64,000 nucleotides of DNA. It comes from Mucilaginibacter sp. (GTDB lineage: Bacteria; Bacteroidota; Bacteroidia; Sphingobacteriales; Sphingobacteriaceae). Below the pieces are notes generated by a model, which ran no database searches, was not told the DNA's origin, and saw only the letters and a program-made list of their open reading frames with translations. Positions within the stretch are counted from its first letter, which is position 1. Each line of letters opens with the position of its first letter. Location of the stretch: NCBI GenBank assembly GCA_965225845.1, contig CBDDBL010000001.1, positions 86,889 to 150,888 of the forward strand. Reading direction: 5' to 3'. Position numbers and translations under genes: made by a program. Below, piece after piece: positions 13,869 through 62,658 of this stretch.

Positions 13869-13896
13869 AAAACATAGTTTAGCTTTTAAAGTTGTT
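13869..13896. promoter_or_regulatory. Symmetric bidirectional AAC-N17-GTT promoter-like element
   Basis: Plus strand: AAAAC(13869-73)-N17-GTTGTT(13891-96). Minus strand: CAAC-N17-GTTTT over the same spacer. Lies between the divergent DUF1003 and PRC-barrel genes. Confidence 0.5.
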
Positions 13897-13927
13897 TAAG
13901 TACCAATTTATTAATTAAACCAAGGTG

Positions 13928-14410
13928 ATGGAAGAACTAAAATACAGTGATTTTGAAATAGTACCCGGCGAGCCGGATATTACTGACTGGGAAGTAATGA
14001 ATGAGCAGGGCGAAAAAATAGGCGATGTGGACGATGTTTTATTTGACCCCGAAAGCCGTAAAGTGCGTTACCTGATCATCGATATGGAAATAAACACGCT
14101 AATGCTGGATAACCCTTACCAGGTTTTGATACCTATAGGCCTGGCAAAAATTGATGAAGAAGAGGACAAGGTGATACTTACTGATATTACCGAAAAGCAA
14201 TTAAATGAATTGCCAAAATATGAAAGAGGCATAGTTACGCCTGAGTACGAGATGGCCATAAGGAATATTATTGAAGAAAACATAGCTGTAGATTCGGTTG
14301 AGCAGTGGAAGGATTTTTACGAGCATGATCATTTTACCGAAAGCGGCTTCTTCAGGAATCATAACGATGAAAATCGTAATGAAAAGATACAACGAGTTTC
14401 GATCAATTAG
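13928..14410 (+). CDS. PRC-barrel domain protein
   Basis: DITDWEVMNEQGEKIGDVDDVLFDPESRKVRYLII; alternative GTG start at 13925. Confidence 0.9.
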   Translation: MEELKYSDFEIVPGEPDITDWEVMNEQGEKIGDVDDVLFDPESRKVRYLIIDMEINTLMLDNPYQVLIPIGLAKIDEEEDKVILTDITEKQLNELPKYERGIVTPEYEMAIRNIIEENIAVDSVEQWKDFYEHDHFTESGFFRNHNDENRNEKIQRVSIN

Positions 14411-14681
14411 AATATTAATTAAATGGATTGATCAGAACAAATTGTTAAACAATGTTTTAACTATTATGCAAACTATATTTTACAAAATCCGTACAAAAGC
14501 GGGTACTTTATAGGGGATTTATACGTTTAATAAAATATTTTAAGATAATCCGTTTGACAGAAATTATGCATACAGCAGGATTATAGGCAGGCATAACAGG
14601 ACCAAACAGCGAGTTTCGGAATAATTTTTCATTAATTCGACTGTACGTCATTAATTTACCTTCAGTCAACATAACTTTCAG

Positions 14682-14689
14682 TACCTTTG
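14682..14689 (+). promoter_or_regulatory. Housekeeping -7 box before the sigma-70 gene
   Basis: TACCTTTG, 10 nt before ATG 14700. Confidence 0.6.
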
Positions 14690-14699
14690 CAGGAATAAT

Positions 14700-15557
14700 A
14701 TGAGACAACTAAAGATAACCCAATCGATTACCAACCGCGAATCACAATCACTTGACAAATATTTAAGTGAGATTGCAAAGGTAGATTTGATAACTGCGCA
14801 GGAAGAAGTTATTCTGGCCCAAAAGATCCGCGAGGGTGACCAGGCCGCTTTGGAACGCCTTACCAAAACGAATTTGCGTTTTGTGGTGTCAGTAGCCAAA
14901 CAATATCAGAACCAGGGATTAACCCTTGGCGACCTTATTAATGAAGGCAACTTAGGATTAATTAAAGCAGCAAGGCGCTTTGACGAAACTAAAGGTTTTA
15001 AATTTATTTCATACGCCGTATGGTGGATCCGCCAATCAATTCTTTCTGCAGTTGCAGAGCAATCAAGAATTGTGCGCTTGCCACTAAATCAGGTAGGATC
15101 ATTAAGTAAAATACGTAAATCGCACTCTAAACTGGAGCAGCAATTTGAGCGTGAACCAACGCCAGAAGAAATGGCTGAGGATTTGGAAACTACTGCTGAT
15201 AAAATTTCGGACGCGCTATCAAATGCAGGCCGTCACGTATCAGTAGATGCACCTTTCATTACCGGCGAGGAAAACACTTTATTAGATGTTTTGCAAAGCG
15301 GCGATGCCGGTACAGATAGCGATCTGATCATTGATTCATTATCACAAGAGATTAAACGTTCATTAGGCATTTTAGCTGAACGCGAAAAGCAAGTATTAGT
15401 ACTATTCTTTGGATTAAACAGTACCGCGCCACATTCTTTAGAAGAGATCGGCGAGAAATTTAACTTAACCCGCGAACGTGTTCGCCAGATAAAAGATAAA
15501 GCATTATTACGCTTAAGGCAAAATTCAAAATCGAGGCTATTACAATCTTATTTGTAA
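14700..15557 (+). CDS. RNA polymerase sigma-70 factor, RpoD/SigA family (Bacteroidota type without region 1.1), probably a paralogue of the primary sigma
   Basis: [63 protein letters not shown]. Confidence 0.95.
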
Positions 15558-15609
15558 GAAGCTTGGTGTAGAACATAATCCTGCCTCTCAAGAGGGAAAC
15601 TGAGATAAC

Positions 15610-15641
15610 AAAAAAGCCAGACAATATTGTCTGGCTTTTTT
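15610..15641. terminator. Bidirectional terminator between the convergent sigma and DUF4142 genes
   Basis: Perfect 32-bp palindrome AAAAAAGCCAGACAAT|ATTGTCTGGCTTTTTT. Confidence 0.85.
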
Positions 15642-15659
15642 TATTGAGCAGGCTTTTGC

Positions 15660-16247
15660 CTATTTCATATTGTCTTTTATTTTATTGATAGCATCCAGGT
15701 GCTTTTGTACAACAGGTGCTGTGTTAGCAGCAAAAGCTTTTAATGTGCTGTCTTTACCATTTTTAGCTTCGTTGTTCATTAGGTCTAAGGTCTTTTTGTG
15801 GCCATCGATCATCGCGCTAACGTATTGTTTATTGAAATCAGGTTCGCTTAATTTACTTAGCTCATCCGCTTTTTTCAGGTGCGCGCTATCCGGTTGCATT
15901 GGAAGGGTAATGTTTTTAGCTTTTGCAATCGCCATCAATTCGTCATTAGCTTTACCATGATCTGTAACCATCATATTCGCAAAATCTTTAATAGCTGCAT
16001 TGGTAGTTTTAGTTAGGGCCAATTTACCCAAAGCAACTTCGGCAAGCCCGCCGTTGGCTGCTGCAGTAGCAAATTTCGCATCATCACTGCTTACAGCTAT
16101 TCCGCCTGTTGCAGCAACATTCGTTGTTGTATCTTTAGTTTTATTCAAACTATCCGCAGTTGATTTGGCGTCTTTTGCGCCATGGTTGCATGATTGGATA
16201 GCCAAAGCCGATACGGCGATCATCATTACGTAACTTAATTTTTTCAT
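15660..16247 (-). CDS. DUF4142 domain lipoprotein
   Basis: Lipobox AIQSC; AANGGLAEVALGKLA, FANMMVTDHGKAN, MIDGHKK, VQKHL (ferritin-like DUF4142 pattern). Confidence 0.92.
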   Translation of the reverse strand: MKKLSYVMMIAVSALAIQSCNHGAKDAKSTADSLNKTKDTTTNVAATGGIAVSSDDAKFATAAANGGLAEVALGKLALTKTTNAAIKDFANMMVTDHGKANDELMAIAKAKNITLPMQPDSAHLKKADELSKLSEPDFNKQYVSAMIDGHKKTLDLMNNEAKNGKDSTLKAFAANTAPVVQKHLDAINKIKDNMK

Positions 16248-16274
16248 GGTGTTATGTTATTGGTTTTTATAATT

Positions 16275-16301
16275 AACAACTTAAAGTATAATAAGTTTCA
16301 G
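16275..16301 (-). promoter_or_regulatory. GAAAC-N16-GTTGTT promoter-like motif before DUF4142
   Basis: GAAAC 16301-16297; GTTGTT 16280-16275; 27 nt to the ATG. Confidence 0.5.
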
Positions 16302-16340
16302 TTATTAATACCTGCTAAAAACAATTGGGTGCGTGATCTA

Positions 16341-16661
16341 TCAATCTAAACCCGGAGCCAACAGACCAGGATCTGTTTCGCCATCATTTGCATGTGTTAT
16401 TTTACTTAAATTATAGTGCATATCGCCATTAATAACCGATCCCTTTATATGGCCGGTATCAAACAATTGCTTTAATATTATAGCGGAGTCAATATTTGCC
16501 GATTTTTTTTTAAGCTCGTTATTTACATCTAAAGCTGTGCCTTCGCCAATTTGCGCCAGCGCGTACATCACTTTGTCCTGTTCGGTAGTCGCATCATTAT
16601 AATGCGCGGGGATATGTATCGGTTTATATTCTTCACGAAATTGCTCGTCGGTCATGCTCAT
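16341..16661 (-). CDS. Hypothetical protein, possible winged-helix fold
   Basis: 106 aa; KVMYALAQIGEGTALDV...ILKQLFDTGHI...YNL resembles a wHTH. Confidence 0.75.
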   Translation of the reverse strand: MSMTDEQFREEYKPIHIPAHYNDATTEQDKVMYALAQIGEGTALDVNNELKKKSANIDSAIILKQLFDTGHIKGSVINGDMHYNLSKITHANDGETDPGLLAPGLD

Positions 16662-16757
16662 AAATATTAAAGTATATTTGATGGCGAATGTTTTCTTTCT
16701 ACATTGAAAAGTTTTTTTACTTTTAATTATTATATCGTATCCAATAATCCCCTATTT

Positions 16758-17402
16758 ATGAGATCAACCTTTACTTTACTATTGGTTTTATTTACTTGTA
16801 CATTATTTGCTCAAAGTGCTGTTGGCACTTCTGTAGGCAGGGCGATTTTTTCGCATGGATCAACTCCTAAACACAGCGCTACGAAGGATACTGTTATAGA
16901 ATCAGATACTACCCGCGAGAACAAAGAACCCCAATATTTTTATATATCTGCCAATACTGATATTTTTGTAGCTGCAAAAGGCGGTGTAGCAAATCGCTTT
17001 TCACCTGCTATAGAATTTGGGCGCACTTATGGTATATTCGACCTTGGGCTGGCTTCCGGGGTAACAAATTCACTTGCCAAAGGCAACGATACCACACATT
17101 ATATAGAACTAAGGCCCACTATAAACATATTTTCCAAAGGCCGCTTTAACCAGGGGCTTTGCCTTGGCGCAGGTTATATATTTAATGCCAAACAAGCCTT
17201 TATGACGGAAATATGTAATAGTATAAACTTTAACATTACTACAACGGTAACTGTTGCAATTACACAAGGTTATTACTTTTTTGACGGTACCAATAATAGC
17301 CGGAGCACGCAATACGTTGGTTTCTCTTTAACCTATAATTTTTTGAAAAAACATAGCACTAACAGGCGCAGAAAGCGGGCGGCAATATTAAGTGATAATT
17401 AA
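16758..17402 (+). CDS. Hypothetical exported protein with a predicted beta-stranded (barrel-like) domain
   Basis: ATG 16758 gives the signal peptide MRSTFTLLLVLFTCTLFAQ; alternating-hydrophobic strands (GLCLGAGYIF, YVGFSLTYNF). Confidence 0.75.
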   Translation: MRSTFTLLLVLFTCTLFAQSAVGTSVGRAIFSHGSTPKHSATKDTVIESDTTRENKEPQYFYISANTDIFVAAKGGVANRFSPAIEFGRTYGIFDLGLASGVTNSLAKGNDTTHYIELRPTINIFSKGRFNQGLCLGAGYIFNAKQAFMTEICNSINFNITTTVTVAITQGYYFFDGTNNSRSTQYVGFSLTYNFLKKHSTNRRRKRAAILSDN

Positions 17403-17404
17403 GC

Positions 17405-18094
17405 TCAGGAATTAATTATAGGGAATGGGGCATGCCGCTTACCTAATACGTTGCCATCATATGCATCAATCATTAGGGTTACATATTCATCTTTACTAAA
17501 ATCAGGATAGGTTATTATCCACAGTTTTTTACCCTTTATTATTTTTTTATAAACTGTAGTAGCAGGCCCACTGGTGGTTTTGTTTAAGGAAATATTTCGC
17601 TTTAAACAAAATTTTAAAATATCTTCCCAGGTAAAAGCATAGTCATCATCAAAATCAGCAGTATTGGTTAACTTGCCTTTATTATCATAATAATACCATT
17701 TACCAACATAAAAGCCATACCAGCACCTTTTTCCTTTTTGTTTAAGGGCGCCATTAGGATAAAATTGCTTATAACTGTAAACATCCTCGTTCAGGTTATA
17801 ATCATATTCATTAATAGGCATACGTGATCCGGCCTGAATGTACTCTTTTAAGCCCTTACCTTTGCTCTGTTCTGTATAAATACGTATTTGGGCATGCGCG
17901 ATGATCGTATCGCCGCCTATGATAACTTTTTTATCCCTGGTTCTGTGGAGCCTGGAAGTATCGAAGCTTTCTAATCTGTCAGCTGCAGAAGGATGGTCCT
18001 GCACTTTTGCAGAATAGTTACCGCCGTGCTGAACTTTAACAGACGAGCATCCTATTATAAAGCATAATCCTATAACAAAGGCAAGCAGTTTCAT
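17405..18094 (-). CDS. Hypothetical lipoprotein with MORN-variant-like repeats and a PepSY-like C-terminus
   Basis: Lipobox IIGC; FYPNGALKQKG, WYYYDNKGKL; W-I-T-Y...LMIDAYDGNVL. Confidence 0.75.
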   Translation of the reverse strand: MKLLAFVIGLCFIIGCSSVKVQHGGNYSAKVQDHPSAADRLESFDTSRLHRTRDKKVIIGGDTIIAHAQIRIYTEQSKGKGLKEYIQAGSRMPINEYDYNLNEDVYSYKQFYPNGALKQKGKRCWYGFYVGKWYYYDNKGKLTNTADFDDDYAFTWEDILKFCLKRNISLNKTTSGPATTVYKKIIKGKKLWIITYPDFSKDEYVTLMIDAYDGNVLGKRHAPFPIINS

Positions 18095-18356
18095 TAATAA
18101 CTCAGTATTATGGCGATTTCACTATCCAAGGGTTCAATCTTACCACACACATCTCTACTTAACCCGCTGCAAATATAGGTGATTGCAACAAAGTTTCATA
18201 TAATTTGAGCCTTGGTATTATATAATTGTTACAACTTTTGGATTTATAACTGCCTGACAATCAATTAAATTAAAAGTTAAATTTTTCGTTTTAAGCATTT
18301 TTAGATATGGCTCTTAGTGTTGATTTAACTTTTGTAATGAAATTTATTTACATTCA

Positions 18357-18383
18357 TGCAACGTTGTTAAAATGATTGCGTCA
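18357..18383 (+). promoter_or_regulatory. Putative autoregulatory ECF promoter TGCAAC-N16-CGTCA
   Basis: Matches the general ECF AAC...CGT architecture; 22 nt before the ECF sigma start. Confidence 0.6.
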
Positions 18384-18405
18384 TATAACGTGAAAGCTGC
18401 AAAAT

Positions 18406-18966
18406 TTGGAATCCGTATACATCGATAAGCATTATAACCTGGTGGTTGAGTGTAAGCAGGGAAGTAAAAAAGCCTGCTACGAGCTTTATAAATTATATTC
18501 TAAGGCGATGTTGAACATCGCGTTTAGGATTGTTGGCAATATTGCCGAGGCGGAAGATGTATTACAGGAATCATTCCTGGATGCTTTTAATAAATTAAAA
18601 GATTTCAGGCAGGAAACTACTTTTGGCCTTTGGCTAAAACAAATTGTAGTTAACAAAGCCATTAACTTATTGCGCAAGCGCAAAATGGACCTGGTTGACC
18701 TGGAAGGTGAACAAATTGAAAATATAGCCGATGAGGAATTTGAAGATGATGAAGAAATACAATATAAAGCGGCATTAGTTAAGGATGCTATGAATGAATT
18801 GCCTGATGGATACCGCGTGGTATTGTCGCTTTATTTATTAGAGGGATATGATCATGAGGAAATTGGGCAGGTATTAAATATATCAGAAAATACCTCAAGG
18901 ACACAGTTTTTAAGAGCAAAAAGGAAATTGGTAGAGATTTTAAAAAGAAAAGGGATAGCACAATGA
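18406..18966 (+). CDS. ECF RNA polymerase sigma factor
   Basis: TTG start; AEAEDVLQESF, FGLWLKQIVVNKAI, LPDGYRVV...EGYDHEEIG...SRTQFLRAK. Confidence 0.95.
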   Translation: MESVYIDKHYNLVVECKQGSKKACYELYKLYSKAMLNIAFRIVGNIAEAEDVLQESFLDAFNKLKDFRQETTFGLWLKQIVVNKAINLLRKRKMDLVDLEGEQIENIADEEFEDDEEIQYKAALVKDAMNELPDGYRVVLSLYLLEGYDHEEIGQVLNISENTSRTQFLRAKRKLVEILKRKGIAQ

Positions 18967-19523
18967 GCAAGCGATTAGAAGATTTTATCAGGGCTAACCG
19001 GGAAAATTTTGATGAACTGGAACCTGATACGGAAATATGGGCAAAAATTGAAAAACAACTTTCTCCGCAGGAAGAGAAAAAAAAAGCTGATGCGAAAACA
19101 TTTTCGTTAGGCTTTGTGCTGCGCGTGGCTGCGTCGGTAATTATTGTAATGGGGATCAGCTTCGCTGTGTTTTTAAAAAGTGTCAATAAACCCGGGGTAG
19201 ACCTGGCCCGGATAAACCCGGAATATGCTAAGCAACAAGTGCACTACGCATCATTGGTTGAAACCAAACGCACCGAGCTTAAACAACTGGCAAAAACAGA
19301 CCCCGCTCTTTACCAGGAGTTTAGCAAAGAAATAGCCCAAATGGATTCAACCTATAAAAAACTGAATAATGATTTAGCGACCAGCCCTAACCAGGAACTT
19401 GTTCTTCGCGCGATGATCAGGAACCTGGAAACACAAACAGAAGTGCTAAACCAGCAATTAAGCGTAATTGAACGCTATAACCAAAGTAAAATCGAACAGA
19501 AAAATGAAACTAAAAGCATATAA
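18963..19523 (+). CDS. Putative anti-sigma factor (single TM, periplasmic coiled coil)
   Basis: Overlaps the sigma stop (ATGA); N-terminal LEDFIRANRENFD...IWAKI; one TM segment (VAASVIIVMGISF). Confidence 0.75.
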   Translation: MSKRLEDFIRANRENFDELEPDTEIWAKIEKQLSPQEEKKKADAKTFSLGFVLRVAASVIIVMGISFAVFLKSVNKPGVDLARINPEYAKQQVHYASLVETKRTELKQLAKTDPALYQEFSKEIAQMDSTYKKLNNDLATSPNQELVLRAMIRNLETQTEVLNQQLSVIERYNQSKIEQKNETKSI

Positions 19524-20781
19524 GGCTATTACTTTAATCGCGGCCTGCCTGGCAGGCAACATCGTAATTGGGCAAACTACAGTTAATACTGTTGCCCTTG
19601 CAGATTCTTCTGCCCAAACTGTAACATCCGTACAAATTAATACCGAACCTGTTGAATTAACCAATGCTGGCTCTCTTGTTAATGTTAAAAACTTTAAAGT
19701 ACAGCTTAACAAGTTAAAAACACAGTTACAAAAAATCAGTGTGCAAACAAATGTTCAGGTTATATCAGCGCTTAATAATATTAATGTTGATGCTGATGTA
19801 GATGCTGTTGCCCCGCAAATCAATTCTATTATAAGGAATGCAACCGTAAGCGTTAATAGTGACAAATACGATGATGCCGAAGCTGTAAAAACCTATGCTA
19901 AAACATATTCTGCTGATGCAAATGATGTATTGTCAATTGAAAACAAGTATGGTAATGTTACCGTAAATACCTGGAACAGGAATGAGTTTAAGGTTGAGGT
20001 TCAAATAAAGGTATCGGCAGGAAGCGATGACCAGGCAAAAAAAATATTGGATAATGTCAGGATCAGCGATGCTAAAAATGGCTCGACCGTTGCTTTCCGA
20101 ACAATTATTGAGGAAGTTAAAAGTTCATGGTTCTCATCCTTAACAGGCAGCGGGGCAAAAAAGATGGAAATAAACTATACTGTTTACATGCCGGTGAAAA
20201 ATGATTTTGTTGTTGATGACCGTTATGGCGCTATCATCCTGCCTGATTTGATGGGAAAAGTAACAATAAACAGTGCTTATGGCAGCCTGAGTGCCAAATC
20301 ATTAACTAATGAAAGCGTAATCAGGGTTAAATATGGCAATGCCGTTATTGAAAACCTGGGGAACTGTACCCTTGATTTGGGTTATGGCGATCTTAATCTT
20401 GGATCAGTAAACTCACTTACTGCCGATGTTGGCTATAGTCCTGTTAAAATCAGCAAATTACACAGCGCCGGTACCGTTAACATAAAATACGGCAGTTTGC
20501 AGATTGGTGATTTAGACAAGAACGTAAAAAATTTAGCTATAAACGCGTCCTACACTAACGTTGATATTGGCTTAAGCGGTGATGAAAATGCAACCCTTTC
20601 CGTTGTAACACATTACGCCGATTTTGGCTATGGGAATAACCCGGTAACAATTACCAGCAAAACCGGTGATGATGAAAGAGGATTTCATCCTACTAAAAGC
20701 TACAAAGGTTATATAGGCAAAGGCAACAACGATAAAAATATTACTATAAGCTCCAACTATGGTAATGTGAAATTCAATTAG
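19504..20781 (+). CDS. DUF4097/adhesin-like beta-strand repeat protein
   Basis: ATG 19504 with signal peptide; repeated (N/K/A/S)YG motifs (NKYGNV, DRYGAI, SAYGSL, VKYGNA, IKYGSL, SNYGNV). Confidence 0.8.
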   Translation: MKLKAYKAITLIAACLAGNIVIGQTTVNTVALADSSAQTVTSVQINTEPVELTNAGSLVNVKNFKVQLNKLKTQLQKISVQTNVQVISALNNINVDADVDAVAPQINSIIRNATVSVNSDKYDDAEAVKTYAKTYSADANDVLSIENKYGNVTVNTWNRNEFKVEVQIKVSAGSDDQAKKILDNVRISDAKNGSTVAFRTIIEEVKSSWFSSLTGSGAKKMEINYTVYMPVKNDFVVDDRYGAIILPDLMGKVTINSAYGSLSAKSLTNESVIRVKYGNAVIENLGNCTLDLGYGDLNLGSVNSLTADVGYSPVKISKLHSAGTVNIKYGSLQIGDLDKNVKNLAINASYTNVDIGLSGDENATLSVVTHYADFGYGNNPVTITSKTGDDERGFHPTKSYKGYIGKGNNDKNITISSNYGNVKFN

Positions 20782-20845
20782 TTATTGGTGAGTATGTTGA
20801 TTAAGTGAATAGTTTAACCAGTTACTAATCAGCTTAATGAAACAC

Positions 20846-22036
20846 TTAACCAACTAACCGGCACAATAAACCTTTCAAATATTCCCCCTCCGGAAAAGAT
20901 GCCCTTACCGGGTGATCTTCTGGCTGGCAAAACTGGTGAATAAACTGCACCTGTTTACCGGCATCAAGCGCGGCCCAGGCTAAAACTTGCTTAAAGGTCT
21001 CCATATTCATAGCGCCGGAGCAAGAATAGGTAGCCAGCAACCCGCCATCATTTAACAACAAAATAGCAAGGCGGTTTAAATCTTTATAAGCACGGGATGC
21101 CCTATCCAATGCAGAACGCGATGGCGCGTATTTAGGCGGATCCAGTACAATAATGTCAAATTTTTCTTCCTGCTCCCTAAAGGCCCTTAACTGCTTGTTA
21201 ACGTCGGATTGTATGGCGATATGTTTGGCTGCATTCAGGTTATTTAGCTTGATATTTTCTCGCAATGTTTCAATCGCAAGTGCGGAACTATCCACACTGG
21301 TAACTGAAGACGCGCCATTATTTAAGCTATTTAATGTAAAGCCGCCTGTATAGCTGAAGCAATCCAGCACTTTTTTGCCTTTGGCATAGCTTGCCAGTAT
21401 TTTACGGTTACCACGCTGATCGCAATAGAAGCCTGATTTTTGGCCTTCGGCGATGTTGATATTATAGATGATGCCGTTTTCCTTAACTTCCACATTTTCA
21501 GGCGGACTGGTTAAAGTTAGCGCAACGTTTGAAGTTTGCAAACCTTCATGCTCGCGCGATGAGGCATCGCTTTTATCAAAAATGCTTTCGGGTTTTAACA
21601 GGTTGTTCAACTCATCAATAATTACCGGCATTACTTTTTCAATACCCGAAGTAAGGATCTGCACCGCTAAATGATTGTTGTATTTATCCACAATCAGCCC
21701 CGGCAAATAATCCGATTCGCTAAAAATCAATCGGCAGGTATTGGTTGAGCCATCAGCTAAAATATTGCCGCGGCTATTTACAGCGATAGCAACTTTTTCA
21801 CGGAACCAGTTATCATCAACCACAGCTTTTTCATCCCATTCTAACAAACGCAAAGCCACGCGCGACTGATCATTATAAAAACCGTAGGCCATAAAGTCGC
21901 CTTTAGCATTAATCAGCCGTACAATATCTCCATTAGCCGGATTTCCTTTCACTTTTTCGATCGCTCCGGAAAACACCCACGGATGGCGTTGCAACACCGC
22001 TTTTTCTTTGCCTTTTTTTAGAATTACCTCGAACAT
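20846..22036 (-). CDS. rlmI: 23S rRNA (cytosine-C5) methyltransferase, RlmI family
   Basis: Start reassigned to ATG 22036; RHPWVFSGAI PUA domain, GQKSGFYCDQR, LDCFSYTGGF, IVLDPP, EGEYLKG. Confidence 0.9.
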   Translation of the reverse strand: MFEVILKKGKEKAVLQRHPWVFSGAIEKVKGNPANGDIVRLINAKGDFMAYGFYNDQSRVALRLLEWDEKAVVDDNWFREKVAIAVNSRGNILADGSTNTCRLIFSESDYLPGLIVDKYNNHLAVQILTSGIEKVMPVIIDELNNLLKPESIFDKSDASSREHEGLQTSNVALTLTSPPENVEVKENGIIYNINIAEGQKSGFYCDQRGNRKILASYAKGKKVLDCFSYTGGFTLNSLNNGASSVTSVDSSALAIETLRENIKLNNLNAAKHIAIQSDVNKQLRAFREQEEKFDIIVLDPPKYAPSRSALDRASRAYKDLNRLAILLLNDGGLLATYSCSGAMNMETFKQVLAWAALDAGKQVQFIHQFCQPEDHPVRASFPEGEYLKGLLCRLVG

Positions 22037-22041
22037 AGGTG

Positions 22042-22049
22042 CAAAGGTA
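22042..22049 (-). promoter_or_regulatory. Housekeeping -7 box of rlmI
   Basis: TACCTTTG just before ATG 22036; supports the shorter start. Confidence 0.65.
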
Positions 22050-22401
22050 AGAAACTTCATAAAAAAGCCCTGCTCCGATGGCAACCGGGCAAGGCTCAAA
22101 TAATTAACTTATAAACTGAACACTATATCCAGGGGTTGAAACCTGAATATTAGTCCGCGGGAAATTGTGGTTAGAATTTATCAAGGGCTCAATCAAATAT
22201 AATATTCTGCATAATATAATTCCATTTGGAGTTTTCCACATAGTTAAGTAAGGTGGCCTGATTTCATATTCAGATTAATAATATGGTTGTTTATGTTAAG
22301 TGTATGTGTTGATAAATAGAGGTTGGGGCCATTTGGAGATACCATTCGCTTATCTCATGTAATAATACCGAATGCCCGTCTCTGGTATCGCTGCGCTAAG
22401 C

Positions 22402-22434
22402 GTTACTTTCTTTTGGCCGTCAAAAGAAAGTAAC
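22402..22434. repeat. Perfect 14-bp inverted repeat within a GC-richer intergenic element
   Basis: GTTACTTTCTTTTG-gccgt-CAAAAGAAAGTAAC. Confidence 0.8.
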
Positions 22435-22575
22435 CAAAGAAAACTCCGGGCTACGTTCTGATCCTACTTTGGGTTGTGCTTTGGCAGGGACAGTGGTTGC
22501 CGGATCAGCCCTGATGCCGATTTCTTTTTAGGGGAACGGCTGGTGTGCTTTTGCATGGTGGAAAATTGGGTTTAT

Positions 22576-22607: not shown

Positions 22608-22634
22608 GGTATTTTATTTCTGTTATCTTAATAC

Positions 22635-24152: not shown

Positions 24153-24164
24153 AAACCTCTGAAT

Positions 24165-43277: not shown

Positions 43278-43589
43278 TTACATCGCGATATCATGTCCCG
43301 GCCTTGGATCATCGGGCAGGATCTCCATATCAGGCACGCCAATATAATCAGCATACCATTGGATAGCGCCTACAACGTCGAGGGCGTCTTCGGCTACAAT
43401 GTTAATGGTTTCAAAAGCATATAGTTTGTTGTGGGCATAACCATACAACTGGATCTCATTGTCGTTCGCACTAAACTTTTCTTCGCTCAGGCAAAATACC
43501 CTGATCTTTAATGCGGTGTCACGCGAATGTATTACGTCTCGGCACGAGTTTTTAGGATCGGTAGCTAGCAAATATACATTGTGGTCCAT
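43278..43589 (-). CDS. Hypothetical acidic protein
   Basis: 103-aa ORF with ATG start and protein-like composition; no recognised family. Confidence 0.7.
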   Translation of the reverse strand: MDHNVYLLATDPKNSCRDVIHSRDTALKIRVFCLSEEKFSANDNEIQLYGYAHNKLYAFETINIVAEDALDVVGAIQWYADYIGVPDMEILPDDPRPGHDIAM

Positions 43590-43653
43590 AAAACCTCAAC
43601 AATGCTTTTTGCAGATAGTTTCAGTAAATTACATTAAGGTTAATATTTAACAA

Positions 43654-53103: not shown

Positions 53104-53130
53104 CAAACTATAATGGACAGGCAATGTTGT
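53104..53130 (+). promoter_or_regulatory. CAAAC-N17-GTTGT promoter-like motif before the DUF3606 pair
   Basis: CAAAC 53104-08; GTTGT 53126-30; 25 nt to ATG 53156. Confidence 0.5.
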
Positions 53131-53155
53131 AAAATAATTAATTATAAATTAAATT

Positions 53156-53329
53156 ATGGACAACAAGGAAAACATCAGCTCCCCCGACAGGGACCTTATC
53201 AATACCAGTGAAAATTATGAAGTGAAATACTGGTCGACAAAGTTTGGCGTAAGTACAGAGCGTTTAAAAACAGCTGTAAAAGCAGTTGGTAACTCTGCGG
53301 CCGCAATTGAAACATACTTAGAAAAATAA
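53156..53329 (+). CDS. DUF3606 domain small protein (57 aa; not in the ORF track)
   Basis: Manual translation MDNKENISSPDRDLINTSENYEVKYWSTKFGVSTERLKTAVKAVGNSAAAIETYLEK. Confidence 0.88.
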   Translation: MDNKENISSPDRDLINTSENYEVKYWSTKFGVSTERLKTAVKAVGNSAAAIETYLEK

Positions 53330-53335
53330 TATCAA

Positions 53336-53509
53336 ATGGAACGAAAAATTAAACCTTCGATAGCCGACACCCGTACTATTGATATTGAAGATGATTACGC
53401 GCTCGATTTTTGGGCAGGCACATTTGGTGTAACGCCCGAAAGATTGAGAGCGGCTATAAATGTTGCCGGCGATTTGGCTAAGGATGTTAAAAAGGAATTA
53501 AAGAAATAA
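53336..53509 (+). CDS. DUF3606 domain small protein (57 aa; not in the ORF track)
   Basis: Manual translation MERKIKPSIADTRTIDIEDDYALDFWAGTFGVTPERLRAAINVAGDLAKDVKKELKK. Confidence 0.85.
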   Translation: MERKIKPSIADTRTIDIEDDYALDFWAGTFGVTPERLRAAINVAGDLAKDVKKELKK

Positions 53510-53994: not shown

Positions 53995-54146
53995 AATTCG
54001 TCTTATAGCACATAGTAATTTTCGTGGCTTAATAAAGTCGGCGACGTTCACGCAGCGTACGGATACTTTTCTGTGTATATACGGGAATCAAAAAATGGCG
54101 TGTAAATGATGCTTATCCTTATATTTAAACCATAAACTGATGCCAA

Positions 54147-55004: not shown

Positions 55005-55113
55005 CCTCAATTAATTCAACGTTAATTCCATTACCTAAACTAAGCATGTCAATTGTATTTCGCAATTTTGCCGGGAGGCTATGCGAAACACAAATTTAAT
55101 TAATTGTTTATTG

Positions 55114-58100
55114 CTATCGTTGTGCCTGGCTCAATACACTGGCAAACTTACCCGCGTAGTCTTTATACTGCGCGGCATACTTGTCAGATAGTTCGTTTTG
55201 GTGACCATCCTTAGTAAACTGGGCCAAACCACCTAGAACCTGAACGCCGATCTCTATAGTTTCCGGATCTATCTGTCCGCTGTTATTTTGCAGCAGGTAA
55301 TAGTTATAATCCAGCTGATCTGTCAGGTAATCGTCAATGTCTTTAGAGATCTTATTGCCGATCACTACATCATTCAGCCGGTACGCCGCCTGGGCCAGGT
55401 ACAACTTTTTACCCTCAATCTGTATATACGGGTTAAGGTCGGGTAGCTCCTGGTCATATTTGGCTAATACTTTTAACGCCAGGTCGGGGCGTTTTTGCGC
55501 CGTTAATGCCTGTGTAAGATCAAGGAAAGCGGAGAGCAAACTGGTATACGACATAAATTTGGCTTCATGATCCAGGTATTTGGCGGTTTTAAAATTACCC
55601 CACTTAAATTTGTTCATTACATTATCGTACATCACCATGGCGTTCACATTTTCCCTTTGATTTTTTAAGGTGGTATCCGGCGTAAAAGGTATTAAATGAT
55701 AGGCAAAACCTTCTTTATACAAATAGGGCTCTAAGCCGATCATATTTTCATCGCCAACGGTTGATGTAAAACAGATAGGGCGTTTCCAGTGGTTATGCGC
55801 CAGGATATCGATCATGGCTAAATTCTCCTTGGTAACATAATTAGGCGGGAACTTAAATTTCAAAGTATCCGTCAATCTCGCCCTGTCGCTATCCGGCACT
55901 ACGCCACTTTTGATAACCTCATCCTTATTAATCGTGATCTTAAAGTTTTTTGTAGGCAGATAATTAGCCGACTCGCCGTTTTGGTACTGCGCCATGGTAG
56001 CCGGGTTATCCGATGTAATGAAATCAAACACGTCACTTAACTCGGTATAGCCGGGAATTTTCCTGTCATCAAAATAGATCACATCGCGCACGCCATCCTC
56101 ATATTTTTCATACGGCATGGTGATCGGCAGCGGTGCGGATTCATTCATCTTGCGTGTCATTTGCCTGATATACCAGCTGCCCGAGAACAAACTCAGGTTT
56201 ACAATGCGCACATCCGGGCGAATGCCTTCCACTTCCTGATCATACCATAGCGAGTAGGTATCATTATCGCCATAACAAAACAAAATGGCATTTTTTGGGC
56301 ACGAGTTCAGGTAATTATAAGCCATATCATGCGGAACCATTTTGGTGGAGCGGTCATGGTCTTTCCATTCTTCTTTAGCTAATACAACCGGGCCAGCCAA
56401 CAGGCAAACTGCCGTGGCGGCAAAAGCAGCAACTTTAGCGCTAAGTTTTTTGCGCAATACATCAGCAATGGCAACAACGCCAATCCCTATCCAAATAGCG
56501 AAGGCGTAAAAGGAGCCCACATAACTGTAATCGCGTTCGCGGGGTTGTATGTTGGGCTGGTTCACATAAAGCACAATCGCGATTCCGGTGAAGAACCATA
56601 GCAGTGTAACCACCAGCGCGTCTTCCTTGCGGCGGTTAAAATGGTATATCAACCCAAACAACCCAATAATTAACGGCAGGGCGAATAGTGGCGTATAAGT
56701 AACACCTTCCAAAGGCCTTGATGGGTCGCCGCCTATTACTGATTTTGGCAGATGCTTACTGCCATCAAAAATCCCCGACGTCCAGTTGCCATCAATACTG
56801 GTCATGCTGGCCATGCCTTCGGCATCATTGTAACGGCCCACAAAATTCCAGAAGAAATAGCGCCAGTACATCTGGTAGATCTGCCAGCTGAACAGGAATT
56901 TCAGGTTATCGCCAAAAGTTGGCGACTGCCCCTGCGGCAGGTTTAACCACGACGTATAAAACTGTACAGCGCTCGCGTAATCCTGGTCTCCCTGGGTAAT
57001 GTACATGCGTGGCAGTATGGTGTTATGATCATAAATAAGCTTTTGTTTTTTACCGGCAACCTCATATTGGGTTTTTCCTTTACGGTAAATTGTAGCGCCG
57101 TCGGTTTGGTCGATAGCCTTCGCATCAAAATACGGACCGTACAGTAATGGCGTTTCACCATATTGCTCGCGGTTTAAATAACTATTCAGGATAAAGGCAT
57201 TATCCGGGTGGTTATTATCCAGATCAGTGTTGGCGGTGGCGCGGATAGGAATATAAGCAAACGAACTATAACCCAGGTAAATAAATGTGCAGCACAAAAA
57301 CGCTAAATTAAGCATTGGCTTTTTGTATTTAGTGGTATAGTATAAGCCCGCGATCAGTAACGCGATCAGCAATACGATAAATACTGCCGCGCCGCTGCCG
57401 AAGCCCATCCCTAATGTATTCACAAAAAACAGATCGAAATAAGCTATACCGATAACCGTATAATTCCTGATACCATATTGCACAAATACCAGGATAACAA
57501 TACCCGTCAAAATGGCTAAAAGCGCGTTTTTAAGGGTGATCCTTTGCGTTCGGCGCAGGTAATAAACCAGTGCCAAGGCCGGGATTGTGAGCAAATTCAA
57601 TAAGTGGATCCCAATGGATAAACCAATTACGTAAGCAATAAAAACGATCCATTTATCGGCGCCCGGATCATCGGCATGGGCATCCCATTTTAATATTGCC
57701 CAAAATACCAGCGCAGTGCAGAATGACGACCAGGCAAACACGATAGTTTCCACAGCAGAGAACCAAAAGGTATCGGTATAAGCGAAAGCCAGAGCGCCAA
57801 CCAAACCCGCACCCATAATAAGGTATACTTTTGACTGATCCGCATCTTCTTCGCCTTTATAAGCAATCAGTTTTCTACATAGCGCGGTGATAGACCAGAA
57901 CAGCAGCATAATAGTACTGCCGCTTGCCAATGCCGAACCCATATTGGTAAAATAAGGCACTTTAGCATTGTTACCCATCGACAAGAGCGAGAATGCCTTG
58001 CCCAGCATGGCGAAAACCGGATAACCGGGCTCGTGGGCCACTTGCAGGCGGTAAGCGCAGGCAATGAATTCCCCGCAATCCCAAAAGCTTACAGAAGGTT

Positions 58101-58179
58101 CGAGAGTGAGGATATAACTGATGGAAGCGATGGCGAAACACAGCCAGCCTAATAAAGTATTAATTTTTCTATACTGCAT
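55114..58179 (-). CDS. DUF2723 domain GT-C glycosyltransferase (TMEM260-like)
   Basis: Start likely ATG 58179; PSVSFWDCGEFIA, HEPGYP, AVETIV, GIHLLNLL, YGDNDTY, RPDVRIVNLSL. Confidence 0.92.
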   Translation of the reverse strand: MQYRKINTLLGWLCFAIASISYILTLEPSVSFWDCGEFIACAYRLQVAHEPGYPVFAMLGKAFSLLSMGNNAKVPYFTNMGSALASGSTIMLLFWSITALCRKLIAYKGEEDADQSKVYLIMGAGLVGALAFAYTDTFWFSAVETIVFAWSSFCTALVFWAILKWDAHADDPGADKWIVFIAYVIGLSIGIHLLNLLTIPALALVYYLRRTQRITLKNALLAILTGIVILVFVQYGIRNYTVIGIAYFDLFFVNTLGMGFGSGAAVFIVLLIALLIAGLYYTTKYKKPMLNLAFLCCTFIYLGYSSFAYIPIRATANTDLDNNHPDNAFILNSYLNREQYGETPLLYGPYFDAKAIDQTDGATIYRKGKTQYEVAGKKQKLIYDHNTILPRMYITQGDQDYASAVQFYTSWLNLPQGQSPTFGDNLKFLFSWQIYQMYWRYFFWNFVGRYNDAEGMASMTSIDGNWTSGIFDGSKHLPKSVIGGDPSRPLEGVTYTPLFALPLIIGLFGLIYHFNRRKEDALVVTLLWFFTGIAIVLYVNQPNIQPRERDYSYVGSFYAFAIWIGIGVVAIADVLRKKLSAKVAAFAATAVCLLAGPVVLAKEEWKDHDRSTKMVPHDMAYNYLNSCPKNAILFCYGDNDTYSLWYDQEVEGIRPDVRIVNLSLFSGSWYIRQMTRKMNESAPLPITMPYEKYEDGVRDVIYFDDRKIPGYTELSDVFDFITSDNPATMAQYQNGESANYLPTKNFKITINKDEVIKSGVVPDSDRARLTDTLKFKFPPNYVTKENLAMIDILAHNHWKRPICFTSTVGDENMIGLEPYLYKEGFAYHLIPFTPDTTLKNQRENVNAMVMYDNVMNKFKWGNFKTAKYLDHEAKFMSYTSLLSAFLDLTQALTAQKRPDLALKVLAKYDQELPDLNPYIQIEGKKLYLAQAAYRLNDVVIGNKISKDIDDYLTDQLDYNYYLLQNNSGQIDPETIEIGVQVLGGLAQFTKDGHQNELSDKYAAQYKDYAGKFASVLSQAQR

Positions 58180-58344
58180 TGATTTAAGTTTTCGATATGT
58201 AAATATCAAATTTTAGGCGCGCAACAGGCAAACTAATTACACACTTTAACATACTTTAGCATAAAACCATTAAGTACAGCCATTTAACTTATTAGGTTTG
58301 TGTACCCCCATTAGTATTTAATATATGATGAGGAATTAAAAGCA

Positions 58345-58378
58345 AAAAGGTCCCGAACAGCGATTGTGAGGGACTTTT
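58345..58378 (-). terminator. Possible terminator between the collagen-like gene and DUF2723
   Basis: Minus strand reads GTCCC...GGGAC followed by CTTTTT; long loop and short stem. Confidence 0.4.
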
Positions 58379-58395
58379 AATTCTTGTTGACGTTT

Positions 58396-58496
58396 TGGCC
58401 TACCCCGCCGATAGAAGCGGGCCGGGGTTATCCGTTCTTTATGCCTGCAGGCTTTAGGCGCGAAGGCCGGTATCCACTTTTATCCCTTACGCGGGG
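58396..58496. repeat. GC-rich intergenic REP/MITE-like element
   Basis: About 100 bp GC-rich island in AT-rich DNA with an imperfect hairpin CCCCGCCG-atagaag-CGGGCCGGGG and a repeated TATCC motif. Confidence 0.5.
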
Positions 58497-58634
58497 GAAT
58501 TTGATAGCGCAGCAAATCTGAATTCGGTGAGTGATCAATAATTGTAATCGCAGGATCTTCTTCAACAGACCCTGCGATTACTTAATAGCCGCTTAATTAT
58601 TTATAATTGTTACGCTATAGCTAATTAATTTATG

Positions 58635-61600
58635 TTAAAACGCATACCATTTGTTCACGCCATCACTTACCAGGCGAATAACACCAAATATTGTGTCAGA
58701 AGTACTATTAACAACCTGGTAAGCCGGGTCATATATTCTGTCGGCTGCTGCTGACGTAATTATCGTAATGCCTGAATTTGGAGTGACTGTTTGCATAATT
58801 ATGACAACCTGCCCTGCCACGAATGAAGATGCGGCAGGCAATCCTACATAATATGTAGGGCCATCCTGACTGATTAAATATAAGCTTTTCGCATTTGTTG
58901 ATGGTATATAAAAACTTGATGAAGAAACAGGATTTATAGTCAATATAGGTGAGGGAGGAGCCCACGCAACGCTGGTGCCATTATAAGTAAGTGCATTACC
59001 GGTTGCAGCACCTGTTGTTGATATATCGCCCGTAGCTACTTTACTAAATGTCAGGTTCCCACCTCCGCTGCCATGCAATACACTGTTAGTGCCAGCACCC
59101 TGGCCAGCAAATTGCGCGGAGGTAAGGCTAAGCGTAGTATTTGTCGCCGAGGTGACACGGCCTTTGGCGTCTACCGTAAAAAGTGATGCTCCCCCCAAAA
59201 TACCATAACTACCAGCTGTAACCCCTGTTGTAGCAAGTGAAACAGCTCCTGTACTGGAAACACTGCTTACATCGCCTGATAAGCTTGTTGGCGCAGTTGG
59301 TATAGCCCCACCCGTACCTGTTATGTATACCTGGCCTGCAGTATTGGTTGTGCTTGCTGTTAGACCTGCTCCGGTAGCACCTGCATTTCCTGGTGAACCT
59401 ACCGCACCCGTATTTCCGGTTGAGCCCGGATTTCCTGCTATATTTAAATTCCACGAGGTATAGGTAGGATTTCCCGGGCCGTGATAGGTATCTATAGTAA
59501 GCGTAATGCTTGCACCGATTATGTTCGTGACAATACCTTCCACATAGTCACTAGGAGTTGTGGACGATGTGAATCGAATACGTGAACCGACTGTATATGC
59601 AAATGGGTATGTGGAGACCGTGAAAGTTTTTGAGCCATAACTTGTACTGTTTGCGGAAGCAGAAGTAAAAGGGCCGTAACCATTACCGGTTGTACCTGTT
59701 GCGCCGGTCACGCCAGTAGCACCGGTCACGCCAGTTGCACCGGTCACACCAGTAATACCTTGTGAACCCGTAACACCAGTTGCACCAATAGCGCCGGTTG
59801 CTCCGGTAGTGCCCGTAACGCCGGTTGCACCAACAGAACCTGTAACACCGGTTGCACCCTGTAGGCCCTGCGCACCTGTAACACCGGTTGCTCCCGTAGC
59901 ACCAACTACACCTGTATTACCAGTAATGCCTTGAATACCTTGTGAACCAGTAACCCCAGTTACACCTTGGATACCCTGTGCTCCGGTAGAACCCGTTACA
60001 CCCGTAGCACCAATATCACCCGTATTGCCGGTAATGCCCTGAATACCTTGTAAACCAGTAGCGCCTGTAACCCCGGTTACACCTTGGATACCCTGTGCGC
60101 CGGTAGAACCAGTTACCCCGGTAGACCCTGTTGCGCCAGTAACCCCGGTTACACCCTGGATACCCTGCGCTCCGGTAGAACCAGTTACCCCGGTAGACCC
60201 AGTTGCGCCTGTAATACCCTGGATACCCTGAATGCCGGTAGAACCAGTTACCCCGGTAGACCCTGTTGCGCCAGTTGCGCCTGTATTGCCAGTAACGCCT
60301 TGAATACCCTGTAAACCTGTAACCCCAGTTACACCCTGGATACCCTGAATGCCTTGAGCACCTGTATTTCCTGTTATGCCCTGAATTCCTTGAGCGCCTG
60401 TTACTCCGGTTACACCCTGAATGCCTTGAATACCCTGTGAACCTGTAACCCCAGTTACACCCTGGATACCCTGAATACCGGTAGAACCTGTATTTCCAGT
60501 TATGCCTTGAATTCCTTGAGCGCCTGTTACTCCGGTTACACCCTGAATGCCTTGAGCACCTGTATTTCCTGTTATGCCCTGAATGCCTTGAGCGCCCGTT
60601 ACTCCGGTTACACCTTGTATTCCCTGGATACCTTGTGAGCCTGTAACCCCGGTTACACCTTGGATACCCTCTGCTCCAGTAACCCCAGTTGTACCCTGAA
60701 TGCCCTGTGCTCCGGTAGAACCAGTCGCACCAGTTATACCTTGAGCGCCTGTCAATCCGGTTACACCCTGAATACCCTGTGAGCCTGTAACCCCGGTTAC
60801 ACCCTGAATACCCTCTGCTCCAGTAACCCCAGTTGTACCCTGAATGCCCTGTGCTCCGGTAGAACCAGTCGCACCAGTTATACCTTGAGCGCCTGTCAAT
60901 CCGGTTACACCCTGAATACCCTGTGAGCCTGTAACCCCGGTTACACCCTGAATACCCTGAATACCTTGTGCTCCCGTAACACCCGTTGCGCCCTGTATGC
61001 CTTGAATACCCTGCAAACCAGTATTGCCCGTCGCACCAACAGCACCTGCAGTACCGGTTACACCCTGTATTCCCTGGATACCTTGTGCACCCGTAACGCC
61101 TGTTGCACCCTGTATGCCTTGAATACCCTGCAAACCTGTTGCTCCTGTAACACCGGTTGCACCCTGTATGCCTTGAGCACCTGTAACACCTGTTACACCC
61201 TGTATGCCCTGCAATCCTGTAACACCCTGAACACCTTGAGCTCCTGTATTTCCTGTTATGCCCTGAATACCCTGTGCACCGGTGTTTCCCGTAATGCCCT
61301 GTATCCCTTGTGACCCCGTAACGCCTGTTGCACCCTGTACACCTTGAATACCCTGCAAACCTGTTACTCCTGTAACACCGGTTGCACCCTGTATGCCTTG
61401 AATACCTTGTGACCCCGTAACACCTGTTGCGCCGGTAGCTCCCGTAACACCAGTTGCACCTTGTAGGCCCTGCGCACCGGCCGGGCCTACAGGGCCTATT
61501 GCTCCGGGTGTTCCCGGAATTCCCTGTGCGCCATTGGTACCTGCTGGTCCCTGCGGGCCTGTAGCGCCTGTTGCCCCGGTAACTCCTTTGGATCCGCCCG

Positions 61601-61994
61601 GGTTAAACGAATAGATAGCATAGGGGACACTCAATAACTCTGATGCACCCAGCAGCACATAACCTGACCCCAGGTCAACCTCTGTTTGAATATATTTTTG
61701 GCCCGATGCCCAGTTGATGCCGGCATAACTCCCCTGGGTAACATTGCCGTTGCCCACACTAATGACAAACAGGCCGTAGGTATCCGTAGTTACCGTTTGT
61801 GTTTCCTGGTACTCAACCGTGCCTGTCGGCGAGCCTGTAAGAATGGACAGCCTGACATTAATCTGCTTATTGGTGAGCAAGGCTCCGTTTGAGCCACGCA
61901 CGATCGCCTGGTACTTAAAGGCCTGCGATTGCGCTAATGACTTTCCGCCACAGATGAAGATGAAGAGTATTACAAGAAGTAAAAGTTTTTTCAT
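58635..61994 (-). CDS. Exported collagen-like fibre protein (N-terminal YQA...SVPYA domain, 212 Gly-X-Y triplets, tail-fibre-like C-terminal modules)
   Basis: Signal peptide; residues 134-769 are uninterrupted Gly-X-Y; a second short GXY run follows; [12 protein letters not shown] motif. Confidence 0.93.
59688..61595 (-). repeat. Collagen triple-helix repeat region (9-bp periodicity)
   Basis: 1908 bp = 636 codons = 212 triplets, dominated by GVT, GAT, GIQ, GAQ, GSQ, GST, GNT, GIT, GLQ. Confidence 0.97.
60664..60951. repeat. Perfect 144-bp tandem duplication inside the collagen region
   Basis: 60664-60807 and 60808-60951 are identical base for base (48 aa, 16 triplets). Confidence 0.95.
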
Positions 61995-62038
61995 ATATCC
62001 CTATATAATTGTGATAGTTCGTTCAGTTTTATGTTTTT

Positions 62039-62590
62039 TTAATATTTAACCAGTTTAACCTCGCCGTGGAAAAGGGTTGGGTTGACTACCTGTACAAAAT
62101 AAACACCGCCCGCGTAATGGGATATATTAATCGGGAAGTAATAATAATTTATAGCTTTATAATCTACGGTTTGCGATTGGAGGATCCTGCCCATGGCATC
62201 AAACACGTTGATCGTGTAAACTCCGTCGGGTACATGGTTAAAGGCAAGTTTAACTACCCCGCCATTGGCCGGGTTAGGAAAAATACTCAGTGATTTGGGC
62301 GAGTTTGCCAAAACCTGCGATACTTCAAGGTCGGGCTGCTCAAAGCCGGTGGTTAAATATAAGTGGGGGTTGATCTCTGTATTGGATAACAGGCCGCCTA
62401 TAGCTTCGCCCGCAACAAAACTTAACGTAACATCAGCATTTTTGTAGGTATCACCCGCTGAAGACACTACCGAACGGGTTATATATTGCGCATGAGAAGC
62501 ACGTACTGCAAATACAGTTACGCCAATCATTAGGAAATTGCGCGTTAAATTTTTCAACGCCATAAAGATAAACTTATTGCAATTATTCAT
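62039..62590 (-). CDS. Small T9SS type A sorting-domain protein
   Basis: Signal peptide (alternative start 62563); VVSSAG...LSFVAGE...TGFEQP core; C-terminal domain IFPNPANG...GVYTINVFDAMGRIL...GGVYFVQV...KLVKY. Confidence 0.9.
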   Translation of the reverse strand: MNNCNKFIFMALKNLTRNFLMIGVTVFAVRASHAQYITRSVVSSAGDTYKNADVTLSFVAGEAIGGLLSNTEINPHLYLTTGFEQPDLEVSQVLANSPKSLSIFPNPANGGVVKLAFNHVPDGVYTINVFDAMGRILQSQTVDYKAINYYYFPINISHYAGGVYFVQVVNPTLFHGEVKLVKY

Positions 62591-62633
62591 AGAAAATATT
62601 TCACAACCCTGGGCTATGGATATCTCTTAGAAT

Positions 62634-62658
62634 ACAACTATTGCTTTTTTTGCAGTTA
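62634..62658 (-). promoter_or_regulatory. TAAC-N16-GTTGT promoter-like motif before the T9SS/collagen operon
   Basis: TAAC 62658-55; GTTGT 62638-34; 43 nt to ATG 62590. Confidence 0.4.

Follow-up and report, generated by a model that had tools for sequence, protein, structure and literature searches.

An earlier note on a 64,000-nucleotide (nt) stretch of the Mucilaginibacter sp. genome (contig 1, positions 86889 to 150888; this whole stretch is called the window below) had described a promoter motif, AAC-N16/17-GTTG(T), shared by several stress-type genes. Our analysis of the 3.6-Mb genome (40% GC) showed that the motif is functional in the form AAC-N17-GTT, i.e., that this sequence is over-represented upstream of genes, biased in its position and avoided inside genes. 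We consider it likely (with a probability of roughly 0.75) that AAC-N17-GTT represents the core promoter of an alternative RNA polymerase holoenzyme, with a sigma factor of the extracytoplasmic function (ECF) type, which drives a stress regulon, and that this sigma factor, judging by its sequence, is the BT1197 (SigH-1)/ECF114-family protein encoded on contig 2 (2728353 to 2728892). The earlier observation was partly confirmed, as the motif is real but its description needed correction, and its interpretation as an ECF-like promoter common to a dispersed stress regulon was supported by the N17-specific enrichment, the orientation and position biases, the depletion in coding DNA, the stress-type genes found downstream and the conservation of the motif at DUF3606 genes.

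For all genome-wide tests, genes were called by a greedy long open reading frame (ORF) procedure. An unbiased scan of all pairs of 3-mers with spacers of 8 to 23 nt (64 × 64 × 16 combinations) in 2297 upstream regions ranked AAC-N17-GTT first of all dyads (190 occurrences as compared to 77.5 for the other spacers; z = 12.8). Across the whole genome, the same sequence was over-represented in non-coding DNA (230 vs. 152 ± 10) and under-represented in coding DNA (936 vs. 1236 ± 49, approx. 6 standard deviations below the other spacers), where the N18 form was likewise depleted (1039). The genome scan for enrichment that had been proposed earlier thus found the N17 form far above chance; the loose pattern AAC-N16/17-GTTG, on the other hand, was at background within the window alone, with 22 matches as compared to 6 to 19 for each of the other spacers. 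The earlier caveat that short AT-rich motifs arise by chance may apply to single sites, but fails at the genome scale.

The N16 variant and the fourth-base G of the original description were not supported. At 19 to 45 nt before the start codon, the N16 form showed no clear excess (32 vs. approx. 24 expected; at most marginal) and the N18 form a weak one (41). As G was not enriched after GTT (0.18 vs. 0.17 in the background), the true core is AAC-N17-GTT; a position weight matrix scan based on GTTG had worked but over-specified the motif, and was replaced by a scan with the bare core. Among upstream sites across the genome, no base was strongly preferred within the spacer, T before GTT showed no clear preference (0.42 vs. 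0.39), C before GTT was at background (0.16 vs. 0.16) and no enrichment of G before AAC was found. The core is its own reverse complement, i.e., a perfect palindrome with half-sites approx. two helical turns apart.

A sharply structured spacing between GTT and the start codon was seen for the N17 form only. Within 8 to 11 nt before ATG, 25 N17 sites were observed as compared to 3.7 expected (P = 3e-13; Poisson), 11 of them at exactly 8 nt, and a second hump was located 19 to 45 nt before the start codon (89 vs. approx. 24 expected; P = 2e-24). The spike at 8 nt is best explained by leaderless mRNAs that would start on the A of ATG, which would place +1 on the 9th base after GTT and thereby GTT at approx. 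-11 to -9 and AAC at approx. -31 to -29. This in silico start corresponds to the 7th nt after GTTGT and falls within the range of 5 to 8 nt predicted by the earlier note. Two further features distinguish the sites from a symmetrical element or a housekeeping promoter: within co-directional spacers, 64% of sites have an A before AAC but only 28% have the mirrored T after GTT, and the 8 nt that separate GTT from the inferred start show no signal for the TTTG of the housekeeping TAnnTTTG box (G at most 0.16), in agreement with the claimed difference from that box. Together, the positional structure, the asymmetric flanks and the lack of a TTTG signal point to a directional promoter used by a non-housekeeping holoenzyme rather than to an operator. 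The core is palindromic, and in four divergent spacers of the genome, including the PRC-barrel/DUF1003 spacer of the window, it is in range for both genes.

A total of 131 genes carry the core 5 to 50 nt upstream, approx. one third of which would be expected by chance. Pfam annotation of this set revealed 4 short-chain dehydrogenases, 3 aldo/keto reductases and 2 zinc alcohol dehydrogenases, 3 DUF4142 proteins and 2 WXXGXW repeat proteins (one more of the latter came from the GTTG-based scan), 4 PAS proteins and 4 response regulators, as well as families represented once, e.g., YCII, a SpoIIAA-like protein, DUF308, MscS, TspO, thioredoxin and ferritin. The motif was found upstream of 3 of the 5 DUF4142 genes of the genome (23 to 30 nt before ATG), both DUF3606 loci (2/2; 21 to 26 nt before ATG at the locus other than that of the window) and 3 of the 11 aldo/keto reductase genes; in these three families it was always located 21 to 30 nt before ATG, where the chance rate is approx. 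0.02 per gene. By annotation, which is the basis of the association with stress and stationary phase, the downstream genes look like a general-stress set. CsbD, whose gene had been proposed as a place to look for the motif, was not found in the genome.

The predicted leaderless genes include endonuclease V and, as judged by eye, a helicase, an MBL-fold exonuclease and a topoisomerase IB-like gene. These four DNA-repair-type genes (contig 1, 30841 to 33429; contig 2, 286073 to 287149, 1385918 to 1386622 and 1388158 to 1389243), of which the helicase is large and of the DEXH type, carry the motif exactly 8 to 9 nt before ATG.

The promoter is not of a new kind but belongs to the PM2 class already mapped in gut Bacteroides. 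PM2 was described as the second, near-palindromic promoter motif of Bacteroides thetaiotaomicron, with -30/-10 boxes and a link to genes of oxidative stress and of the stationary phase (Ryan et al. 2020; PMC7366714). BtModulome ties PM2-like motifs to the ECF sigma factors SigH-1 (BT1197, ECF114) and SigW-1 (PMC12596196). The supplement of Ryan et al. consists of PM2 tags and coordinates; the BtModulome consensus, ...RAAMAAWTHHHTBYHTNWTWTGTT..., corresponds to AAM-N17-GTT (PMC12596196). The two motifs share their bipartite -30/-10 layout, near-palindromic form and spacing (RAAMAAW...TWTGTT), with the element positions in Mucilaginibacter placed in silico. SigH-1 target 51-mers show AAC-N18-GTT followed by 9 to 10 nt up to their 3' end (PMC12596196), and hence agree with a start 9 to 10 nt after GTT, provided that their ends are transcription start sites. 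Also shared are the types of genes linked to the Bacteroides motif (thioredoxins, Dps, an MscS-type channel and YtxH-type genes of stress, stationary phase or starvation) and the presence of a BT1197-family ECF in the Mucilaginibacter genome; the sigma factor, called uncharacterised in the earlier note, is therefore not wholly so, since the motif equals that of PM2 and SigH-1/BT1197. Conversely, Mucilaginibacter shows no clear T before GTT, N17 dominates over N18, approx. one fifth of the transcription units are apparently leaderless, the genes concerned are typical of a soil aerobe (DUF4142, DUF3606, PRC-barrel, aldo/keto reductases, PAS kinases) and a single ECF copy is found as compared to approx. 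five Bacteroides paralogues. A transcription start site study of Flavobacterium psychrophilum reports no such motif (PMC9723704).

Other known systems show a more distant likeness. The resemblance to alphaproteobacterial EcfG promoters (GGAAC-N16/17-CGTT; PhyR-NepR system) suggested by the earlier note is generic only: AAC at -35, GTT at -10 and an extensive set of small stress proteins (PRC-barrel, DUF4142, DUF3606 and similar) are common to both, but the sites studied here have no GG before AAC and no preference for C before GTT. PF13628 and PF12244 are also present in a Caulobacter control genome, and EcfG reportedly occurs in Alphaproteobacteria only (PMC3892343). Actinobacterial SigR/SigH (ECF12, GGAAT-N18-GTT) shares the ECF architecture, GTT as the -10 element and thioredoxin/redox targets, but differs in its -35 element (GGAAT instead of AAC or AAAC), its adjacent zinc anti-sigma and its ECF group. 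As in the ECF114 group (Casas-Pastor 2021), to which the candidate sigma factor putatively belongs, no canonical anti-sigma is found beside the sigma gene. The motif promoters differ from those of the Bacteroidota housekeeping sigma-A, which carry TAnnTTTG at -7 and TTTG at -33.

Conservation was examined at orthologous loci and, in samples of 400 to 800 kb, by the genome-wide signature. In six other genomes of the Sphingobacteriaceae, AAC-N17/18-GTT was located 21 to 26 nt before the ATG of DUF3606 orthologues at 7 of 10 loci, and in a genome of another genus of the family (G033) it was present at 3 of 4 DUF4142 loci. PRC-barrel orthologues were too diverged for footprinting (at most 51% identity, and often inside operons). 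As the motif is kept within the family and mostly absent at DUF4142 and ferritin orthologues in other families, regulon membership is lineage-specific, while the promoter type is conserved. A Bacteroides xylanisolvens sample shared both the upstream N17 enrichment (23 vs. approx. 11.5) and the coding depletion, the latter at N17 and N18, and an equal-sized sample of the Mucilaginibacter genome gave 22 vs. approx. 10. In genome G182, which has no match to the candidate ECF at E <= 1e-28, the N17 signature was absent (8 vs. approx. 7.5).

The Mucilaginibacter genome encodes 15 ECF sigma factors. The published sgRNA_1197 spacer, used as an anchor to fetch the Bacteroides loci, overlaps the start of a 167-amino-acid (aa) ECF gene, whose best match in the Mucilaginibacter genome is the product of contig 2, 2728353 to 2728892 (40% identity over 166 aa, E = 2e-43; next best match, E = 7e-18). 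Regions 2.3-2.4 and 4.2 of this protein are very similar to those of BT1197, and it is the only member of the BT1197 family in the genome, encoded outside the window. A reverse search found approx. five near-equal paralogues in Bacteroides, which makes the single Mucilaginibacter gene a co-orthologue of that group. Most genomes encode the candidate once; its counterpart in another genus of the family is 87% identical, and it was present in 54 of the 101 genomes sampled from the phylum. No anti-sigma gene lies next to that of the candidate; the downstream ORF is 123 nt away and begins like a secreted protein with a signal peptide, and the neighbouring genes differ in G033. In a search with NCBIfam, no ECF match reached the curated cut-off, and the best match of the candidate was an actinobacterial SigH model, far below that cut-off. 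From these similarities we infer that the candidate reads the motif.

According to the mechanism that we propose, an alternative ECF-type holoenzyme would recognise AAC-N17-GTT, often as AAAC and occasionally with an 18-nt spacer, with AAC as the -30/-35 element and GTT as the -10 element, and would begin transcription at about the ninth base after GTT. It would drive approx. 110 to 130 transcription units, about one fifth of them as leaderless mRNAs, in a regulon with many genes for small stress-type proteins, redox enzymes, sensor kinases and DNA repair. In the window, its targets would be the PRC-barrel and DUF1003 genes (through one palindromic core), the DUF4142 gene, the DUF3606 pair and the gene at 43278 to 43589, and its specificity would reside in the single BT1197-family ECF.

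Several results weigh against this proposal. Approx. 77 of the 190 upstream matches, and about one third of the individual sites, are expected by chance, and the frequency of exact TAnnTTTG boxes is only slightly lower at genes with the motif (27/132) than elsewhere (526/1981). DUF4142 orthologues in the phylum and ferritin orthologues in the class, outside the family, mostly do not carry the motif, also in genomes that encode the ECF, and the comparison with a genome that has no match to the ECF at the cut-off used consists of one genome, G182. As for the sigma factor, the near-equal Bacteroides paralogues found in the reverse search leave BT1197 as one of several possible orthologues, none of the 15 ECF genes, that of the candidate among them, showed a convincing motif upstream, which leaves no clue from autoregulation, and at six loci of other families the candidate-family ECF shares an operon with crtI, preceded by an inverted repeat of another type.

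At those six loci (L253, L254, L255, L258, L261 and L265), the phytoene desaturase gene (crtI) directly follows the BT1197-family ECF gene, which is preceded by the inverted repeat TGTTTAAC-N(about 17)-TTAAACA. The TGTTTAAC/TTAAACA repeat is probably the operator of a light or oxidative-stress regulator. No AAC-N17-GTT was found upstream of crtI in the Mucilaginibacter genome.

Among the alternatives, the one that fares best, which we regard as considerably less probable than the proposal above, accepts the motif as a real alternative-sigma promoter but has it read by another of the 15 ECFs, e.g., the one encoded in the window at 18394 to 18966, or by several with overlapping specificity. It would account for the absence of an autoregulatory site that singles out one ECF, for the connection of PM2-like motifs to SigH-1 and SigW-1 alike in BtModulome, and for the ties of the candidate ECF to carotenoid genes in other families; moreover, the 18394 to 18966 ECF, with its probable anti-sigma, lies approx. 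2 kb from the DUF4142/PRC-barrel cluster. On the other hand, the BT1197-family ECF is the clear best match, agrees closely with BT1197 in the regions named above, and is single-copy and well conserved within the family; the one sampled genome that has no match to it at E <= 1e-28 also does not have the motif signature, and three other ECFs have upstream motifs of their own, of the TGTAAC...CGTATCT type.

It is improbable that AAC-N17-GTT is instead an inverted-repeat operator bound by a dimeric activator or repressor at ordinary sigma-A promoters. The perfect palindrome, with its half-sites approx. two helical turns apart, the description of PM2 as near-palindromic and the weak depletion of TAnnTTTG boxes at motif genes would all suit such an operator. 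However, the 8-nt spike puts GTT at -11 to -9, which leaves no room for TAnnTTTG, and the two flanks do not mirror each other (AAAC vs. GTT(A)). In addition, the spacer sequence is not conserved, the under-representation of the bare core in coding DNA is in line with the avoidance of spurious promoters, and the Bacteroides motif is located at -30/-10 of mapped start sites. The last alternative, that a short AT-rich pattern was matched by chance and the sites have no common function, would agree with the background level of the loose pattern in the window, the mere six fixed bases of the core and the number of upstream matches expected by chance, but it is refuted at the genome scale by the spacer-specific enrichment (z = 12.8), the positional spikes (P from 3e-13 to 2e-24), the coding depletion and the recurrence of the motif at orthologous DUF3606 promoters of other genera, and applies at most to single sites, e.g., that before tatC (8364 to 8386) or the N16 site of the T9SS (type IX secretion system) locus.

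The general stress response of Bacteroidota is poorly understood outside gut Bacteroides and, to our knowledge, Bacteroidota lack RpoS. For soil-type Sphingobacteriaceae, the present analysis supplies a promoter rule (AAC-N17-GTT, with transcription starting 9 nt downstream), approx. 110 to 130 candidate transcription units and one named candidate sigma gene. Two of its approaches may be reused on other genomes, i.e., the use of leaderless mRNAs as a "ruler" that locates the start site from sequence and the use of core depletion inside genes as a signal of promoter function. More tentatively, the single ECF114-family sigma factor of Sphingobacteriaceae might be the master general-stress sigma of aerobic Bacteroidota, a functional counterpart of RpoS, SigB or EcfG, with a palindromic six-base core that can fire in both directions, e.g., in the PRC-barrel/DUF1003 spacer. 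If so, this would explain why, in B. thetaiotaomicron, PM2 is so frequent at internal and antisense start sites, why the core is purged from coding DNA and why approx. one fifth of the regulon is leaderless.

Within the window, six N17 cores are located in non-coding DNA. The palindromic core at 13871 to 13893 can be read on both strands and lies inside the 65-nt divergent spacer between the PRC-barrel gene (PF05239; 13928 to 14410, + strand) and the gene of a DUF1003 membrane protein (PF06210; 13371 to 13862, - strand), both annotated with Pfam and predicted to be regulon members. On the + strand it lies 34 nt from the PRC-barrel ATG, with a predicted +1 near 13902; on the - strand it lies 8 nt from the DUF1003 ATG, with a predicted leaderless mRNA (+1 = 13862). 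The sequence AAAAC-N17-GTTGTT reads at 13869 to 13896 as it had been given. The "GTTTT variant" ascribed to DUF1003 does serve this gene, but is not a separate site; because AAC-N17-GTT is self-reverse-complementary, it is the PRC-barrel core on the other strand.

The core before the DUF4142 gene (Pfam; 15660 to 16247, - strand) lies at 16275 to 16297 on the - strand, 27 nt upstream of the start codon, with a predicted +1 near 16266. Here the spacer between GAAAC and GTTGTT is N14, not N16 as had been claimed, and AAC-N17-GTT is formed with the second GTT (16297 to 16275). On the + strand, the core at 53106 to 53128 (predicted +1 near 53137) precedes by 27 nt the first of two tandem DUF3606 genes (Pfam; 53156 to 53509, i.e., 53156 to 53329 and 53336 to 53509), and the letters CAAAC-N17-GTTGT at 53104 to 53130 were correct, as was the distance of 25 to 31 nt between the end of the motif and the start codon claimed for the PRC-barrel, DUF4142 and DUF3606 sites. 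The DUF4142 and DUF3606 genes are also predicted regulon members, as is the gene of a 103-aa hypothetical protein (43278 to 43589, - strand; no Pfam or NCBIfam match), which has the core (43598 to 43620, - strand) exactly 8 nt before its ATG and would be leaderless (+1 = 43589); GAAAC-N17-GTTG at 43622 to 43597 likewise read as described.

The two further sites of the window carry less weight. The core at 8364 to 8386 (- strand), 25 nt before tatC (7487 to 8338), fits in position, but tatC is a housekeeping gene and the site may be a chance match, as may the site at 10460 to 10482, 106 nt before accB. At the T9SS/collagen locus, where Pfam confirmed a Por_Secre_tail protein, TAAC-N16-GTTGT was present at 62658 to 62634 letter for letter, but its role as a promoter was not supported, as the N16 class is at most marginal. 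The 1119-aa gene at 58635 to 61994 of this locus contains near-identical repeats such as AACCAGTTACCCCGGTAGACCC (60107 to 60268 and 59200 to 61400), read on the opposite strand, in keeping with a collagen-like protein of Gly-X-Y repeats encoded downstream of the T9SS-tail gene.

Two other sigma factors were considered as readers of the motif and rejected. One is a second sigma-70 of 285 aa, encoded between the PRC-barrel and DUF4142 genes (14700 to 15557, + strand), which shares 82% of its residues, and the entire region 4.2 helix, with the primary sigma (contig 2, 1233752 to 1234612). Its region 2.4 differs from that of the primary sigma at two residues (Q to S and I to V), no AAC-N17-GTT was found upstream of its gene, and the protein may represent a paralogue of the housekeeping sigma with a link to stress. 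The other, a stand-alone ECF (contig 1, 633435 to 634001), belongs to a multi-copy expansion.

Of the remaining ECF genes, the one in the window (18394 to 18966, + strand) is overlapped by 4 nt by the ORF at 18963 to 19523 (+ strand), a probable anti-sigma gene, which in turn is overlapped by 20 nt by the ORF at 19504 to 20781 (+ strand; 425 aa); neither ORF has a Pfam match, and the locus lies approx. 2 kb from the stress-gene island. On contig 2, three paralogous ECF genes of approx. 155 to 165 aa (663406 to 663882, 1894686 to 1895183 and 525422 to 525889), at least two of which are followed by a partner ORF of approx. 195 aa, each have upstream a TGTAAC/TGTAGC-N16-(CG)TATCT-like sequence, probably the autoregulated promoter of the respective ECF.

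The dyad scan also revealed other classes enriched upstream of genes across the genome. A second ECF-type class (AAC-N16-CGT, 71 vs. 27.7; AAC-N17-GTC, 40 vs. 11.9) suggests at least one more ECF regulon. In addition, TCT-N11-TCT, CTC-N11-CTC, CTT-N11-CTT and ACT-N11-ACT were strongly enriched (e.g., 94 vs. 32), a sign that intergenic DNA contains a periodic or repeated element of 14 nt.

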